A DNA stretch of 64,000 nt. It comes from Octopus vulgaris (Eukaryota). The stretch spans positions 38,812,001 through 38,876,000 of the forward strand of contig OX597840.1 of the NCBI GenBank assembly GCA_951406725.2. Reading direction: 5' to 3'. The notes under the pieces are model-generated. The model was not told the origin of the DNA. It ran no database searches and was given only the letters and a program-made list of their open reading frames with translations. A program made the position numbers and the translations under genes. Below, piece after piece: positions 5,773 to 57,918 of the stretch (position 1 is its first letter; every line of letters begins with the position of its first letter).

Positions 5773-7476
5773 CTTTCTTTTATTAGCCACACAGGGCTGA
5801 ATACAGAGGGGACAAATACAAATGCAGAGCTTTTCTTTTCGAGGGTGGAAAAAAATAAAAATGTAAGATTGCGATCAAAAGGGATCGAGAGGAGGAAAAA
5901 AAAGGAAAAAAAGAAAATCGTGTATCACAGAAATAATGGTGTAAACATTGATATAACAAGATTGGGTTCATCCGTGGGAAGAAAAGCCTACAGAAAAGAC
6001 CACGGGAACCCCAGTCAGGGAGGAAATAAACACATGAGGTCAAAAATGCTCTCTTTCTTTCTTTTTTACGATCTACAGGATCATGCTCAAAATGGTTTCG
6101 TTACTAGCACGCACCATCTTTGCAACATTCACCCATCTTTTATTGAATCTTTCGCGAGACAAAACTTCCCTCTCCATTCTCACCTTCCTTTTCAAGTGGT
6201 ACTTGAAAAAGTTGATGAGCGAATGGCCAGAGAGGTAAGTGTTTGTCTCTAATCCTTTCGCTCGAGTCCACCACACACATTCTTTCACCATGGCCACCAG
6301 TACGATGAAAACTGCCTTGCCTTCCCGGTTGAGGGAAGGGGGCGGAGCAATTCTCACGATAGACTCGGCCGATAGGCGGATTCGTCCCACACGTGACAGC
6401 AGCCGTTCGGCATAAGCCCACAGGTCGGAAATGGTTGGACATTGCACGAGTGCGTGCAGAACGGTTTCGTCGCTCTGACCGCATCTCGGGCAAGTCGGTC
6501 CAGTGTGTCTGGAACCGTGTCTGTAGAGCTTATCCCGAACAGGTAATGCTTCTCGATAGCACTGCCAGGCCAGGGATCTTTGGTGATTGTTCATAGGTCC
6601 CGGCCCGAAAGTTGTCCTGAACAGGCGGGTCAGGTGTTCCTCGTCGACGCCCAGACTCTGCCCGAGTTCGTCGTCGCATCTCCCCTCCACTAATCCTCTA
6701 TAGAATGCCTTTGTTGTGATGGAGTCGCACAAGTTCGATCCCGGACGGCAGAGTTGCTTGAGAGCAACGCGACACTCACGGTGCCATTCGCCTAGCCTCG
6801 GTCTCTGCTTGATCCATGACTGTAGTTCGTCCAAGGAGACGAGCTGCGGGAAAGCGCGCCGCACAAAAGGCGACCACCCCTGTTCACCGTTGTCTATGAA
6901 GCGCCGGAGATGTCGCAGTCTCAGCGCATGTCTGCGCATCATCAACCACGGCATGCCCAGCCCTCCATTTAGCGGGTGTTGGCAGCAAATGGATCGCCTG
7001 ACCATCGGAACGTTTCCCTTCCACAAGAAGCGGAAGAGTATGCGTTCCAGTTTGGTGATGGTAGGGTCGGGACAAGGCACGACGGTCAGACGGTACTCGA
7101 TGACGGATGCGATGTACGCGTTCGCCACCTCCGCCCGACCTTTTAGGGATAGCTTTCTCTCAGTCCATTTCTGGGTGAGAGTAGCCACCCTGAGTCGTTA
7201 TCTCGCCCCAGTTCTTCTCCATTTGGAGGTCCGGACCGAACCAGACCCCGAGCAATTTAACCGGTCCGTCCGTCCAGCGTCCCACGATGGAGACGCTGTT
7301 GGACGGCATGGGCTTGCTTCTCCAGGTGCCGAGCCGCAAGCCCACTGACTTTTCCCGGTTAATTTTTGCTCCCGTTACCGCTTCGTATTCTTTCAGTGTC
7401 TCGCCGACCAGCTCGATGTGCTCGTAGCTCGACACTATGACGGTGACGTCATCCGCGTATGCAGACACGCGTATGC
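5773..7476 (-). mobile_element. 5'-truncated Tx1/L1-clade non-LTR retrotransposon (ORF2 RT C-terminal part, zinc knuckle, 3' UTR)
   Basis: ORF 7160-7624 has SAYADD and GAKINREKS; after a frameshift near 7190, ORF 6073-7188 has LSLKGR, RFLWKG, GGLGMP and CPRC-x-ETVLHALVQC; ~300 bp T-rich 3' UTR with AATAAA at 5779-5784. Confidence 0.92.
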
Positions 7477-21202: not shown

Positions 21203-21252
<50 letters not shown>

Positions 21253-21291
21253 CTTATATTATATACATATGTATATCTATCTGTCTATCTA

Positions 21292-21327
<36 letters not shown>

Positions 21328-21328
<1 letters not shown>

Positions 21329-21691
21329 TTTATTTTAAGCAGCAGAAAATTCAACAAAATCTGTTACTCTGAGTTTCTCGTTGCCGTTCATCAGACAGTT
21401 TTTGCTAGAATGGAACTGATATATCAATTCAATCTATACTCTTACAAACGCTACACCTTTAAAAAGAAATGGACTTGTTTGATTGGCCCTTTAGAAAAAA
21501 CGGTCAATCTTCGAGCGATAAACAAAAAGGTCAAAAATATATGTATATATATATAAAAAAACTTATAAAAACTTATAAAAATTATAAAAATTATAAAATC
21601 CGAGGAAAAAACCTATTGACGTTAATGAAGACAGTGCAAATTAATGCATAGAAATTAAACCTGTTATAAATACTGCAATACTGTTTACTCC

Positions 21692-21693
<2 letters not shown>
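21328..21693 (-). mobile_element. Hammerhead-bearing non-coding insertion in (TA)n (solo pLTR-like Penelope-type element)
   Basis: 366 bp of unique sequence between TA runs; hammerhead ~33 nt from the 3' end followed by AATAAA; absent from the adjacent duplicated site. Confidence 0.7.
21361..21398 (-). ncRNA. Minimal type I hammerhead ribozyme motif
   Basis: Minus strand CTGT-CTGATGA-ACGGCAACGA-GAAA-CTCAGAG-TA^ACAG: stem I CTGT/ACAG, canonical core, near-palindromic stem III, GUA site. Confidence 0.75.
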
Positions 21694-21741
<48 letters not shown>

Positions 21742-22082
21742 TATCTATATATTTATTTATAGATATATGACCACGTATATATGTATGCACATATACATAT
21801 GTATATATGCATATATATATATATTGTTTATATTATATACATATGTATATCTATCTGTCTATCTACTCATATATATATATATATATATATATAAATATAT
21901 GCATATCTATATTTATTTATAGATATATGTCCACGTATATATGTATATGCGTGTGTGTGTATGTATCTATGCTTATATATACATATGTGTGTGTTTGCGT
22001 GTGTGTTTGTTGGAGTGTGTTTATGAGTGTGTATGTATATGCATATATATATGTATATATATGTATATATGTATATTTATAT

Positions 22083-35624: not shown

Positions 35625-36393
35625 TACCTATTTCTTTACTACCCACAAGGGGCTAAACAAAGAGGGGAAAAACGGATTAAGTCGATTACATCGACCTCAG
35701 TTCATAACTGGTACTTTATCGAACCCGAAAGGATGAAAGGCAAAGTCGACCTCGGCGGAATTTGAACTCAGAACGTAACGACAGACGAAATACCTATTTC
35801 TTTACTACCCACAAGAGGCTAAACACAGAGGGCACAAACACGGGCAGACAAACGGATTAAGTCGATTATATCGACCTCAGTTCATAACTGGTACTTTATA
35901 TATTGACCCCGAAAAGATGAAAGGCAAAGTCGACCTCGGCGGAATTTGAACTCTGCACAATACGACAGACGAAATACCTATTTCTTTACTACCCACAAGA
36001 GGCTAAACACAGAGGGGACAAACAAGGACAGACGAACGGATTAAGTCGATTATATCGGCTCCAGTGCGTAACTGGTACTTAATATATTGACCCCGAATGG
36101 ATGAAAGGCAAAGTCGACCTCGGCGGAATTTGAACTCACAACGTAACGACAGACGAAATACCTATTTCTTTACTACCCACAAGAGGCTAAACACACAGGG
36201 GACAAACACGGACAGAGAAACGGATTAAGTCGATTATATCGGCTCCAGTGCTTAACTGGTATTTAATATATTGACCCCGAAAGGATGAAAGGCAAAGTCG
36301 ACCTCGGTGGAATTTGAACTCAGAACGTAACGGCAGACGAAATACGGCTAAGAATTTTGCCCGGCGTGCTAACGATTCTCCCAGCTCGCCGCC
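35625..36393 (-). mobile_element. SINE family A tetramer: one head plus four core-tail units
   Basis: Units start TACCTATTTC at 35625, 35791, 35975 and 36159 (spacing 166/184/184 bp); single head at 36343-36393. Confidence 0.92.
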
Positions 36394-50486: not shown

Positions 50487-51422
50487 CCATCATCATCATC
50501 ATCGTCTTCATTATTATCATCTGCATCATCCTCATCATTTAGCGTCCGTTGTCAATGCTGGTATGTTTTGGCAGGTTTGACAAGGGCCGATAAATTGAAG
50601 GGCAGCAGCAGACACCACTCTGATTTGGGTTGGTTTCAACGGCTGCATGCCCTTCTTCAGGCCAGCCAAGAGTGTAATGGGTGCTTTTTTATGCCACAGG
50701 TACGGGTTTCAGTTGCGTGGCACCAGTATCTGTCAGAACTACGCTTCCCCTTGGTTTGCAGAGTCTTTTTCTAAAGCACGGCATATTGTCAAAGGTCCCA
50801 GTAATTTGATGTTGCCTCTGTGAGGCTGAACGCTCCAAAGGTGCTTTTTACCTGTCAGTTATGCGACACCAGCGTGAGCCATATTGCCTTCATGCGGCCT
50901 AACACTCGAAAAGTGCTTCGTCTGGATACTTATTGATCAGACCACGCATATATCTGTGTATGTGTGTGTATGTATGTGCGTGCGCTTGTGGTGCTTGTTT
51001 GTGTGAATGTGTGTGTGTGTGTGTATGTGCATGTGTTAAGAGCGATTGAGAGAGAGAGAGAGAGAGAAAGAAAATGTGACAGAAAGAGAGAGTACTATAT
51101 ATAATAAATGGATGTGTGGTTTGACACCTATGGTCAGTTCGACAAAGATTAGAAGGCAGAAATTGGAAAGCTCAAATCAGCCTCCTTGTAAAAATATAAG
51201 AAAGGAATAATTTACGAAAAAAGGAAAAACAAAATTGAATTATTCTTCACCTCAAAGTTAAAACATTTCTTATAATTGACAGTGCATGGCGAGGCGTATA
51301 TCCAATCCCTATTCATAATTATGTATATAATTATCAAATATTTTCTAAAATTTTCCTATGAGGTTTTTATTTCCGAGCTGACCACGTGGTAAAATCGTTA
51401 AAGATTTTTATTCTTTATTATA

Positions 51423-51497
<75 letters not shown>

Positions 51498-51519
51498 TTT
51501 TAATTTATTATATAGAAGG

Positions 51520-51570
51520 AGCTTCTACAGGACTAGTACTGTTTCATTCAAGAGAAATCTTCAGGAAGCT
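51520..51570 (-). ncRNA. Type I hammerhead ribozyme motif (left arm)
   Basis: Exact reverse complement of 57496-57546. Confidence 0.78.
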
Positions 51571-51966
51571 ATTTAACAAGAATTGTATTAGCATTTATAC
51601 ATTTAGGCAGGTTTAAAGGAGTGGTGGTGGGGGACTTTTTTGGGGGTAGGCATAGCGCAAAATATCATACTTGGGGGAGTGGTCAAGGAGTCAGTGGTAA
51701 GTTAGATGAAAGAATAGATAAATAAAAAAGTAAAAAAATAAAAAAATAAAAAAGTAAAAAAATAAAAAAGTAAAAAAATATATAAAATAAAAAAATAAAA
51801 AAATAAAATAATAAAAAAATAAAAAAATAAAAAAATAAAAAATAAAATAAAAAATATATATAAAAAATATATATATTAAAAGGGGGGAATAGAGTTATAG
51901 GTAAATAAGGAGATTCTCACTTATACCTATACACATATGTATACGTATCTACACACATATATATAT

Positions 51967-52013
<47 letters not shown>

Positions 52014-52463
52014 TACACACACATATACATACATACATATCTACATACACACATACATACACCCGCCCACATATACAAATTTATACACATGCACATGCAT
52101 ATACCTGTCTACACATACACACACGTATATATGCATACACTCACTCCCATGCGTGCACGCATACACACATGTATATATATACCCACGACCACACATACAT
52201 ATATACACAGAAAAATATATATTCATACGCACATACACTCATGCACACACAACACACCTGGTTCCCTATATACACATATTTACACCTATATATACATACA
52301 CCCACATACACATATGTACATATATATATATATATACACACATATATATACATATACACATATACACGCATACATATATATACATGTGTGCACACACATA
52401 CATATACACACATACATACACATACACATACACATGTGTACCTATACATACCTACACATACAC

Positions 52464-52522
<59 letters not shown>

Positions 52523-52847
52523 CCAATACAGGCCCATTCCCTAATTTTAATTTTATATCTTCATTTATTACTTTTGTTATCTTTGATCGCTAGAGCTAAG
52601 GGTCCTGGCTATGGCAGCATGTCCATTTGTCTGTCTACTAGAAGGCAAGTACTCATTCCCGCACGCACACTCATTAGCACGTACATTCACCCATTCGTAC
52701 ACTCATACACATACACGTACGCACGCGTTATATTCATACATACAAACATCTACATACGTTCACGTATATACACATACGTACTCGTACCTACAGATTCGTG
52801 TCTACACTTTAGGAGGCTAGTCTATACATATACACCAATAAATATAC

Positions 52848-52880
<33 letters not shown>

Positions 52881-53511
52881 TACACACACACACATATATA
52901 CTCCTACATACAGATACATACCTATATATATATATATATATATACATACATACATATATATACACATATATACATATATATATATATACATATACATACA
53001 TACACATACACACATATATATATATACATACACACACATACATACACATATATATACATACACAAACATATATACACACATATATATATATATATACACA
53101 CATACACACACATACATACATATACACACAAACACATACATACGTATACATACAATACTTACATGCATTTATACGCATACACACACCCATTTATATATAT
53201 ACATATATATATATATATATACATATATATATACACACTCACACATACATATACAAATATACGCACACACATACATACATACACGTATACACATACACGC
53301 ACATACACATATACATGCGTACCCATACACGTGCACACACGCACGCGCATCCATATATATACACACACACACATATATACACGTGTGCAAGCATACATAC
53401 ATACTCATACACGCACACATACTTACATATACATATATGCACACACCTACACACATATATACATACACATATACATGCATACATACATATATGCATACAT
53501 ACACACACGCA

Positions 53512-53561
<50 letters not shown>

Positions 53562-53717
53562 CACATACACATACACACACATATACATATACATACACAT
53601 ACACATACATACATATATATACACATATATACACATATACACATACATATATACACATATACATACATATACATACACACACACATACATATATACATAT
53701 ACACTGATACACATACC

Positions 53718-53775
<58 letters not shown>

Positions 53776-53820
53776 TATACACAAGCATATACTTATATCT
53801 CTACATACTCACATATAAAC

Positions 53821-53851
<31 letters not shown>

Positions 53852-53868
53852 TACACATACATTTACAT

Positions 53869-53912
<44 letters not shown>

Positions 53913-55157
53913 CCATATATATATATATACATACACATATATATACACACACACACACACATACATATACACATATACATGTATACATACGCAATAATGA
54001 TACACATATATACACATACACACACACGCACACATACATATACACACACACATATACAAATACATACATACACACATACACACACACACATATATATACA
54101 TACATGTACACATATACATACATATATATCAACAAGGGAGGGTAAAGTTAATTAGTTATTAATCAATTTCACCAAGTATTCAGTATGTAAGGGGACCATT
54201 ATTATTTTGAGTAAACAATGTTAGAGGGAAAAAATTCTCTAAGTAGTGGAAGAGGCTAAAAAACTTTATTGGCTGCTATTTCTAGAAAGTTTAGTAAGTG
54301 GCAAAGTAATTTATTTTATTTTACTAAGCCCTAATTATATAATATTTTATACATACATACACATACATAAACACATACATTTACACATACACATGCATAT
54401 ACATATATACACATATACATACAAACACATATACATATATACACACGCACACATGTATATATGTATATGTTTATATATATACGTGTGTATATATGTATAT
54501 GTGTTTGTATGTATATGTGTATATATGTATATGCATGTGTATGTGTAAATGTATGTGTTTATGTATGTGTATGTATGTATAAAATATTATATAATTAGGG
54601 CTTAGTAAAATAAAATAAATTACTTTGCCACTTACTAAACTTTCTAGAAATAGCAGCCAATAAAGTTTTTTAGCCTCTTCCACTACTTAGAGAATTTTTT
54701 CCCTCTAACATTGTTTACTCAAAATAATAATGGTCCCCTTACATACTGAATACTTGGTGAAATTGATTAATAACTAATTAACTTTACCCTCCCTTGTTGA
54801 TATATATGTATGTATATGTGTACATGTATGTATATATATGTGTGTGTGTGTATGTGTGTATGTATGTATTTGTATATGTGTGTGTGTATATGTATGTGTG
54901 CGCGTGTGTGTGTATGTATGTGTATGTATATTTGTATATGTATATGCATGTATATATATATATGTGTGTGTATATGTGTATTATGTATGTATTTATATGG
55001 ATATGATATTTATATATATATGTATGTATATGCATCTATCTGTGTGTGTGTATGTGTATATATGTGTATCATTATTGCGTATGTATACATGTATATGTGT
55101 ATATGTATGTGTGTGTGTGTGTGTATATATATGTGTATATATATATATATATGGGTG

Positions 55158-55188
<31 letters not shown>

Positions 55189-55307
55189 ATATATATATAT
55201 ATATATGTATGTGTATGTAAATGTATGTGTATGTGTGTGTATATATATATATATATATATGTTTATATGTGAGTATGTAGAGATATAAGTATATGCTTGT
55301 GTATATA

Positions 55308-55353
<46 letters not shown>

Positions 55354-55521
55354 GGTATGTGTATCAGTGTATATGTATATATGTATGTGTGTGTGTATGT
55401 ATATGTATGTATATGTGTATATATGTATGTGTATATGTGTATATATGTGTATATATATGTATGTATGTGTATGTGTATGTATATGTATATGTGTGTGTAT
55501 GTGTATGTGTATATATATATA

Positions 55522-55556
<35 letters not shown>

Positions 55557-56191
55557 GAGTGCGTGTGTGTATGTATGCATATATGTATGTATGCATGTAT
55601 ATGTGTATGTATATATGTATGTAGGTGCGTGCATATATGTATATGTAAGTATGTGTGCGTGTATGAGTATGTATGTATGCTTGCACACGTGTATATATGT
55701 GTGTGTGTGTATATATATGGATGCGCGTGCGTGTGTGCACGTGTATGGGTACGCATGTATATGTGTATGTGCGTGTATGTGTATACGTGTATGTATGTAT
55801 GTGTGTGCGTATATTTGTATATGTATGTGTGAGTGTGTATATATATATGTATATATATATATATATATGTATATATATAAATGGGTGTGTGTATGCGTAT
55901 AAATGCATGTAAGTATTGTATGTATACGTATGTATGTGTTTGTGTGTATATGTATGTATGTGTGTGTATGTGTGTATATATATATATATATGTGTGTATA
56001 TATGTTTGTGTATGTATATATATGTGTATGTATGTGTGTGTATGTATATATATATATGTGTGTATGTGTATGTATGTATATGTATAAATATATATATATG
56101 TATATATGTGTATATATATGTATGTATATATATATATATATATATAGGTATGTATCTGTATGTAGGAGTATATATGTGTGTGTGTGTATGT

Positions 56192-56223
<32 letters not shown>

Positions 56224-56542
56224 TTATTGGTGTATTTGTATAGACTAGCCTCCTAAAGTGTAGACACGAATCTGTAGGTACGAGTACGTATGTGTATACA
56301 CGTGAACGTATGTAGATGTTTGTATGTATGAATATAACGCGTGCGTACGTGTATGTGTATGAGTGTACGAATGGGTGAATGTACGTGCTAATGAGTGTGC
56401 GTGCGGGAATGAGTACTTGCCTTCTAGTATACAGACAAATGGACATGCTGCCATAGCCAGGACCCTTAGCTCTAGCGATCAAAGATAACAAAAGTAATAA
56501 ATGAAGATATAAAATTAAAATTAGGGAATGGGCCTGTATTGG

Positions 56543-56591
<49 letters not shown>

Positions 56592-57049
56592 GTGTATGTG
56601 TAGGTATGTATAGGTACACATGTGTATGTGTATGTGTATGTATGTGTGTATATGTATGTGTGTGCACACATGTATATATATGTATGCGTGTATATGTGTA
56701 TATGTATATATATGTGTGTATATATATATATATATATGTACATATGTGTATGTGGGTGTATGTATATATAGGTGTAAATATGTGTATATAGGGAACCAGG
56801 TGTGTTGTGTGTGCATGAGTGTATGTGCGTATGAATATATATTTTTCTGTGTATATATGTATGTGTGGTCGTGGGTATATATATACATGTGTGTATGCGT
56901 GCACGCATGGGAGTGAGTGTATGCATATATACGTGTGTGTATGTGTAGACAGGTATATGCATGTGCATGTGTATAAATTTGTATATGTGGGCGGGTGTAC
57001 GTATGTGTGTATGTAGATATGTATGTATGTATATGTGTGTGTATGTATA

Positions 57050-57108
<59 letters not shown>

Positions 57109-57495
57109 ATATATATATGTGTGTAGATACGTATACATATGTGTATAGGTATAAGTGAGAATCTCCTTATTTACCTATAACTCTATTCCCCCCTTTTATA
57201 TATATATATTTTTTATATATTTTTTATTTTTTTATTTTATTTTTTTATTTTTTTATTTTTTTATTTTTTTATTTTTTTATTTTATATTTTTTTTACTTTT
57301 TTATTTTTTTACTTTTTTATTTTTTTATTTTTTTACTTTTTTATTTATCTATTCTTTCATCTAACTTACCACTGACTCCTTGACCACTCCCCCAAGTATG
57401 ATATTTTGCGCTATGCCTACCCCCAAAAAAGTCCCCCACCACCACTCCTTTAAACCTGCCTAAATGTATAAATGCTAATACAATTCTTGTTAAAT

Positions 57496-57546
57496 AGCTT
57501 CCTGAAGATTTCTCTTGAATGAAACAGTACTAGTCCTGTAGAAGCT
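57496..57546 (+). ncRNA. Type I hammerhead ribozyme motif (right arm)
   Basis: AGCTTC-CTGAAGA-TTTCTCTTGAAT-GAAA-CAG-TACTAGTC-CTG-TA^GAAGCT: 6-bp stem I, CUGANGA/GAAA core, stem III with palindromic ACTAGT loop, predicted cleavage after 57540. Confidence 0.8.
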
Positions 57547-57654
57547 CCTTCTATATAATAAATTAATTTTACTCTGCTATGTATTGAGTACCTTACTTAC
57601 TGTGGTTAACCCCGAATCAACCCGGGACCTACATATATATATATATATATATAT

Positions 57655-57850
57655 CAATAATAATATAGGGTAAAATTAATTAATTAATTAAGAATTAAGA
57701 ATTCCACCAAGTAGTATTCGGCATGTTAAAAGGGCCATTTTCGGTAAACTTAATACAATGAATATAATTATAATTAGGGTCCAGCATATCATCGGTATGT
57801 GGTAAAGCAATTTTTTTTTTGCTGAACACTATTATAATTATATTCATAAA
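57655..57850 (-). mobile_element. Short (TA)n-embedded element with fold-back end
   Basis: AGGGTAAAATTAATT..CACCAAGTA..CCATT is homologous to 54127-54200; imperfect hairpin 57759-57787 / 57820-57847. Confidence 0.55.
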
Positions 57851-57858
57851 TATAAAAG

Positions 57859-57918
<60 letters not shown>

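Follow-up and report, generated by a model that had tools for sequence, protein, structure and literature searches.

The window analysed here comprises 64,000 nt of the Octopus vulgaris genome (GenBank assembly GCA_951406725.2, contig OX597840.1, forward-strand positions 38,812,001 to 38,876,000) and contains a 6-kb palindrome whose two arms end outwards in hammerhead ribozyme motifs, as seen in Penelope-like elements (PLEs). An earlier note made from the letters alone had described two arms of about 3 kb around a 34-nt spacer, differing by a few substitutions, by microsatellite lengths and by an indel of about 140 bp, with an extra tail on the right arm only and (TA)n at both ends, and all of this was confirmed by global alignment of the left arm (51500-54447) with the reverse complement of the right one (54482-57566). 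The arms show 14 mismatches over about 2,907 aligned columns, or 9 once five microsatellite register shifts are removed, together with 16 gap events that lie nearly all within simple repeats, the largest being the 140 bp of 54903-55042. Substitutions in unique sequence are found at 52635, 52766 and 52829, and the 420 bp flanking the spacer on each side are identical. The tail (57567-57629/32, 63-66 nt), which is without counterpart on the left, has at its end a small hairpin whose loop is rich in A and C, and adjoins (AT)10, while the left arm end adjoins T8 and then (TA)18(CA)17; a target-site duplication is indistinguishable within the microsatellite at the insertion ends. The palindrome is interpreted as two head-to-head copies, devoid of open reading frames (ORFs), of a multi-copy repeat with a hammerhead end, which probably arose as one Penelope-like insertion at (TA)n.

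The absence of coding capacity proposed before holds: when tested, the 11 longest frames within the arms or next to them gave no Pfam match, so that no frame for the reverse transcriptase (RT) and GIY-YIG domains of an autonomous PLE was found among them, and the two long frames tallied consist for 76% and 89% of isoleucine, tyrosine, threonine and histidine. The flanks are not mirrored, as no blastn match was found between them and their local alignment score of 85 compares with a shuffle maximum of 84.5, and pairing within the spacer is no better than chance (DNA fold z -0.26). RNA editing was considered as an origin of the arm differences and rejected, only three of the nine clear substitutions being A/G and three T/C in the sense orientation.

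The outer end of the element was followed in four sequencing runs, three as contigs (X1, X9 and X11) and one as raw reads (X21), which were aligned to 57345-57860. Records on the hammerhead end amount to 2,354 in X1, 250 in X9 and 7 in X11, with identities ranging from below 90% to 100%; those of X1 divide into 814 at 99% or more, 968 at 95-99%, 505 at 90-95% and 67 below 90%. Other copies run into (TA)n at 57563-57567 (12 contigs in X1, three in X9 and one in X11), and this end point of the family coincides precisely with the end of the left arm. X1, X9 and X11 cover the tail as well. The terminal 290 bp are a multi-copy family, seen in three of the four runs and near-absent in X21. Besides, both arms carry the same allele at all eight variant sites, one of these alleles being carried by about 8% of the X1 depth, and this sharing, minority allele included, indicates that the arms derive from one source lineage. 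Two further signals were dismissed: an X11 contig end at 57538, considered as a sign of cleavage, because an end of this kind marks a branch of the assembly graph and the site is spanned by a different contig, and the fall in depth at both ends of the aligned stretch, considered as truncation or a third end, since edge and repeat filters yield it. Several loose ends in X1 and X11, which resemble library adapters, were ignored.

The body of the arms is of a peculiar composition, with alternating purine-pyrimidine runs making up 62% of the right arm versus 13% of the remaining window, where no 3-kb segment of the first 51 kb exceeds 36%. Its distribution was assessed by word shares measured on 56230-57800: 20 of the 24 listed runs, from 7 studies, contain 0.32-0.59 of the words of this segment, the three aligned contig runs standing at 0.59, 0.40 and 0.39. 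Since the terminal block and the flank can supply at most 28% of the searched words, and since X11 is almost without flank, at least about one fifth of the words must derive from the upstream arm. Of 1,085 words from there, only 28 are repeated at other places in the window, which is a weak control for far larger data sets. Three small runs under the same species label, containing 0.01-0.04 of the words, were not used as evidence, and the 20 word-bearing runs, none of which is recorded as RNA (14 are guessed), are uninformative on expression. To judge from these word contents, it is likely that the family carries the microsatellite-rich body along with it.

The possibility that the body belongs to no family, a short hammerhead element having taken up 2.7 kb of adjoining host DNA through read-through, or ordinary genomic DNA having been copied in a local inverted duplication, has to be weighed here. 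The body resembles microsatellite-rich host DNA and contains, in unique block A (Table 1), a diverged piece of another repeat, the one that flanks the palindrome on the right (alignment score 106.5, against a shuffle mean of 66.8 and maximum of 93); this relationship suggests that the body began as captured host DNA. Capture between the terminal pseudo-long terminal repeats (pLTRs) of PLEs is moreover documented (PMC3846280), and neither block A nor block B has a further copy within the 64-kb window. Nevertheless, the word shares in the three aligned runs exceed what the terminal block could supply, and the dominant X11 contig differs from the window copy yet extends upstream of 57345, so that such a one-off origin appears rather unlikely. 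As separate observations, the right flank (57652-57860), covered by many X1 contigs, and the mirror of block A (54129-54353) belong, in diverged form, to a single repeat, which is likewise found next to (TA)n; of the 78 metagenome loci matched by a short block A pattern, not one is similar over a longer stretch (0 blastn matches), and scanning of block A and the right flank revealed no hammerhead core.

The attribution of the palindrome to a Penelope-like insertion, put forward in the earlier note, is upheld by its match with published cases as described in PMC8557442, PMC3846280 and PMC4209133. PLE insertions are reported to carry at their 5' end an inverted copy that is itself 5'-truncated, and to have a tail of 30-40 bp at one end and (TA)n targets (PMC8557442), inverted pLTRs and short 3' extensions are treated as routine in a curation guide (PMC8969392), and PLEs make up 6.83% of the O. 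vulgaris genome (PMC13282606). The corresponding features are present here, namely an inverted copy with outward 3' ends, a one-sided tail and (TA)n at both ends. More precisely, the insertion units of endonuclease-positive PLEs (PMC8557442, PMC3846280) share with this locus the head-to-head copies with outward 3' ends, the one-sided tail, the hammerhead near the 3' end, the (TA)n target and a near-symmetric junction, but they differ from it in that the 3-kb arms contain no ORF and no direct tandem pLTR, in the tail length and in the high alternating purine-pyrimidine content of the body. Since the combination of head-to-head copies, one-sided tail, (TA)n and hammerhead is the published PLE signature, the architecture as such is already known.

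Among more particular precedents, Pen1 and Pen3a of Adineta vaga likewise have kilobase-sized non-coding DNA upstream of the terminal repeat, although the spacers of Pen1 vary between copies and lie behind an ORF whereas the present body is seemingly common to the runs and without ORF (PMC3846280). MRC1, a non-autonomous PLE of Chlamydomonas (PMC8557442), resembles the octopus element in being ORF-less with PLE-type ends and mobilised in trans, the latter being presumed for the octopus element, but it belongs to the Chlamys group, whose members are described as mostly without canonical hammerheads and often arranged in head-to-tail arrays. The layout is therefore well known, and the long microsatellite-rich body of 3 kb is the unusual part. 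Literature searches returned no paper on a hammerhead-bearing PLE family of octopus or other cephalopods, which an O. vulgaris repeat library (Zenodo) may nonetheless include, and none on a microsatellite-dispersing non-autonomous PLE in molluscs.

The following course of insertion is proposed. An endonuclease would nick a (TA)n microsatellite, and reverse transcription would start at the tail end (about 57630) on RNA left uncleaved by the hammerhead, copying about 3.1 kb; the cDNA would then fold back in its self-complementary TA/CA repeats, leaving a loop of 34 nt, and be copied back as the left arm. This arm would be connected to the (TA)n target through the AT-rich palindrome 57560-57569, the site where tail-less copies end, which would explain why the left arm lacks the tail, and the arms would later drift by slippage and a few substitutions. 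That the template was likely uncleaved follows from the insertion ends, which lie 26 and 89-92 nt downstream of the predicted cut site. That the two 5' ends come to lie no more than 34 nt apart after 3 kb is accounted for by fold-back of the first cDNA without extra assumptions, and the self-complementarity of TA/CA repeats would make such folding easy. Palindromic junctions of PLEs were indeed interpreted as self-priming in the A. vaga work that also reported captured spacers of 0.9-1.5 kb in Pen1 (PMC3846280). At a nucleotide rate of 0.0036 per million years (Myr) (PMC13282606), the divergence between the arms corresponds to an age of at most about 0.4-0.7 Myr if they were identical at birth. 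The locus itself is most likely a dead-end insertion product without function of its own.

A number of points weigh against this reading. X21, which bears the same species label, placed just 8 of the 12.9 million reads examined, all eight of them belonging to a rearranged variant on 57489-57596, and since it is the sole raw-read run and placed so few reads, copy number is uncalibrated, summed contig depth not being equal to copy number. X1, which supplies most records, may be the source sample of the sequenced window. The family status of the body rests on word shares over 56230-57800, a measure prone to inflation by microsatellite words. No read or contig was seen across the centre or either junction, and the bins at the right junction (57633-57686) are at zero depth because the aligner skips repeats. 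In addition, no ORF of a partner element was identified, the tail exceeds the 30-40 nt given in the literature, and the two RT starts of an anole PLE bracket its tail, with both strands extended, which fits synthesis from two primers as well (PMC11167929). The scarcity of the family in X21 could possibly be due to a different species under the label or to filtering. As for the X21 variant, it shows two substitutions and an opposite-strand joint 57528/57582, which suggests a small rearranged derivative of the ribozyme end, inverted or tandem; among the X21 reads examined, neither the remainder of the family nor the repeat of the flank turned up.

The lack of spanning reads leads to the question of an assembly artefact, in which a fold-back chimeric long read would have been joined via a repeat copy to a different locus, or two haplotypes mis-joined. 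The identity of the 420-bp stretches adjoining the spacer would fit such an origin, as would the fact that the arms end in a high-copy repeat, complex PLE insertions being reported to trouble assemblies (PMC8557442). On the other hand, the mirror ends exactly at the family-wide end point and the flanks are non-homologous, unlike alleles; the substitutions in unique sequence and the 140 extra bp are atypical of read errors, and a random mis-joined copy would have a chance of only about 1-8% of carrying the minority allele. An artefact is accordingly held to be improbable.

As to the mechanism, the fold-back synthesis suggested in the earlier note fits a centre that is symmetric to within 34 nt, but both nicked strands could also have primed cDNA, at the tail end and at about 57565, on two full-length RNAs whose copies were joined at their 5' ends. 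The anole PLE protein was reported to nick AT-rich DNA on both strands and to use two RT starts downstream of the hammerhead, cleavage not being required (PMC11167929). In the same source this protein extends both strands and is predicted to be dimeric, and its two starts bracket the tail; moreover, many copies of the octopus family end at 57563-57567, and two separate syntheses would explain the 140-bp arm difference from birth. Yet two independent cDNAs that terminate no more than 34 nt apart after 3 kb would require a fixed 5' end, and the minority allele is common to both arms, so that two-primer synthesis is considered unlikely. Once mapped, the centres of many palindromic copies would decide between fold-back and two-primer synthesis in PLE insertion.

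The non-autonomous status proposed in the earlier note may not hold. It is quite conceivable, if short of an even chance, that the family consists of ordinary PLEs which do code for protein and have a long non-coding part, either an enlarged retained intron or a captured 3' spacer, both arms being truncated before the ORF; the insertion mechanism would be left unchanged by this, and the term non-autonomous element would be wrong. Recent PLE insertions of O. vulgaris average 5.4 kb (1,829,278 bp over 336 insertions; PMC13282606, Table 1), which makes a coding element with a long non-coding part plausible, and the Pen1 spacers of 0.9-1.5 kb provide a parallel (PMC3846280). Furthermore, an intron of the Drosophila virilis element ends at the 5' end of helix I (PMC4209133), where an acceptor-like AG is found here too, and at this very place, 57496, four contigs of X9 and X11, two runs whose RNA origin is a guess, diverge from the sequence and share a 10-nt upstream motif. 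A spliced form would explain these contigs, as would a sister family, which may be the coding partner. Acceptor-like motifs are nevertheless common, at about 2 per kb per strand, and the three X11 contigs listed differ at 4 positions in 37-68 nt, as a sister family may do. Besides, the 10-nt motif does not occur in the window beyond chance, no ORF begins downstream of the acceptor-like motif in the window copy, and each arm, although 3 kb long, would need to have ended before the ORF was reached.

The hammerhead near each outer end, followed by AATAAA, is of type I as first described, but the qualifications minimal and intact have to be dropped, given helices I, II and III of 6, 3 and 4 bp and a U·U pair at 10.1-11.1. 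Helix I (AGCUUC/GAAGCU) and the core CUGAAGA...GAAA are combined with a helix II in which U·U takes the place of the usual closing G-C, and the predicted cut-site triplet is GUA (57538-57540). Similarly, the stem III region, formerly called palindromic, is a near-palindrome with 14 of 16 positions self-complementary. Minimal hammerhead ribozymes of PLEs are defined in PMC4209133 by a long helix II, a short helix I, little or no helix III and G10.1-C11.1; the octopus motif shares with them the type I topology, the conserved core and a self-complementary helix III region that enables a dimer, predicted here at -29.4 kcal/mol, but differs by its 6-bp helix I, 3-bp helix II, 4-bp helix III with an 8-nt loop and U·U. 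Pairs of hammerheads on opposite strands, 100-700 bp apart, were known before (PMC4209133).

A descriptor requiring helices of at least 6, 3 and 4 bp, with thresholds set after the motif had been seen, finds the two mirror sites and no other in the window, and no site at all in 200 shuffles. Rfam gave no hammerhead family for the terminal 231 bp at E up to 10, its two matches being unrelated, and none is present among the matches listed (150 of 390) in the scan of the window; Rfam microRNA matches in the window were set aside as microsatellite noise. Ribozyme pattern scans of metagenome contigs and of viral contigs yielded 0 loci each, and the folding energy of the motif is not better than that of shuffles (z -0.17). 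In a short isolated RNA, helices I and III are predicted with probabilities of 0.67-1.0 (0.72-1.0 for helix I), but in RNAs of at least 97 nt the predicted probability of helix I falls to 0.02 or less because its 3' strand is taken by a competing hairpin, whose pairs have probabilities of 0.80-0.98 in RNAs of 97-288 nt. Among other copies, the variants in the hammerhead (3 of the 8 listed sites) concern N7, a loop 3 base and a change from C-G to a U-G wobble in helix II; all being at tolerant places, they lend modest support to selection on the fold.

At the RNA level, a transcript running through both arms would form a 3-kb hairpin in which the ribozyme is paired to its mirror copy, and a self-cleaved end would consequently be expected only for transcripts that start inside an arm. 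The self-cleaved 3' end that had been envisaged is thus not borne out, considering this mirror pairing in read-through RNA, the insertion ends past the cut site and the competing hairpin predicted there. The label retrozyme-like does not fit either. Animal non-LTR retrozymes are non-coding, carry a type I hammerhead and have been proposed to derive from PLE pLTRs (PMC7229834; bioRxiv 10.64898/2026.07.22.740005), but they are described as head-to-tail tandems of about 300 bp giving circular RNAs (PMC7229834), in contrast with the head-to-head copies of 3 kb found here. There is one hammerhead per strand, the two lying 6 kb apart and not in tandem units, so that the element cannot release a monomer.

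What is present at this locus is a clear and large example of a known by-product of Penelope-like retrotransposition. If the 3-kb body is a fixed mobile unit, it would offer octopus genomes a route to gain complex microsatellite blocks and long inverted repeats. Octopods show heavy adenosine-to-inosine editing of RNA. A more far-reaching view, held only tentatively and doubtful as a whole, is that of a young, kilobase-sized, ORF-less Penelope parasite of octopods with a mostly TA/CA body, which would spread ready-made microsatellite blocks into (TA)n, fold back easily owing to the self-complementarity of its repeats, and in this way seed multi-kilobase palindromes and long double-stranded RNA.

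Table 1. Features of the palindrome and its immediate surroundings (positions in the window)
Feature	Coordinates	Strand	Description	Basis
Left target side	51425-51499	.	(CA)17(TA)18, then T run	
Left arm	51500-54447	-	Inverted, tail-less copy, 3' end outward (left)	Arm alignment
Mirror hammerhead motif	51520-51570	-	Sequence identical to 57496-57546	
Spacer	54448-54481	.	34 nt, unpaired TA/CA repeats; likely fold-back loop	
Right arm	54482-57566	+	Direct copy, likely synthesised first	Arm alignment
Unique block A	54576-54800 (mirror 54129-54353)	+	Diverged relative of right-flank repeat	
Right-arm-only stretch	54903-55042	+	140 bp	Arm alignment
Unique block B	56240-56545 (mirror 52520-52825)	+	2 differences between arms	
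T-rich tract	57200-57344 (mirror 51709-51869)	+	Upstream of terminal block	
Splice-acceptor-like motif, weak	57475-57497	+	Branch-like CTAAT; AG 57496-57497 at helix I 5' end	
Type I hammerhead motif	57496-57546	+	Predicted cut after 57540	
Competing hairpin	57537-57555	+	Predicted, 8 bp; covers cut site, rivals helix I	
AATAAA and AT palindrome	57557-57569	+	AATAAA 57557-57562 overlaps 10-bp palindrome 57560-57569	
Tail	57567-57632	+	Right arm only; belongs to family (covered in 3 of 4 aligned runs)	
Right target side	57633-57652	.	(AT)10, adjoins tail	

Elsewhere in the window, a second PLE-type end with a hammerhead was noticed at 21320-21695 on the minus strand, its motif (21361-21398) having a 4-bp helix I, the core CUGAUGA, a palindromic helix III and A·A at 10.1-11.1. 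AATAAA and (TA)n come after the motif. This end is flanked by two copies of a stretch of about 90 bp (21237-21325 and 21811-21899), and its comparison with the end of the palindromic element is not significant (score 129, shuffle maximum 130). The minus strand of 50611-50660 shows hammerhead core letters and a possible helix II, with no helix I found by the descriptor, and is probably a chance occurrence. A tandem array at 35670-36345 consists of 3.7 copies of a 184-bp unit that presumably resembles an octopus short interspersed nuclear element. Finally, a 3' fragment of the reverse transcriptase of a long interspersed nuclear element, 374 codons long and with a zf-RVT domain, lies at 6073-7197 on the minus strand; relatives in Argonauta hians, Octopus sinensis and O. 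bimaculoides are among its 18 matches, and further ones are found in metagenome contigs, one of which is labelled bacterial.

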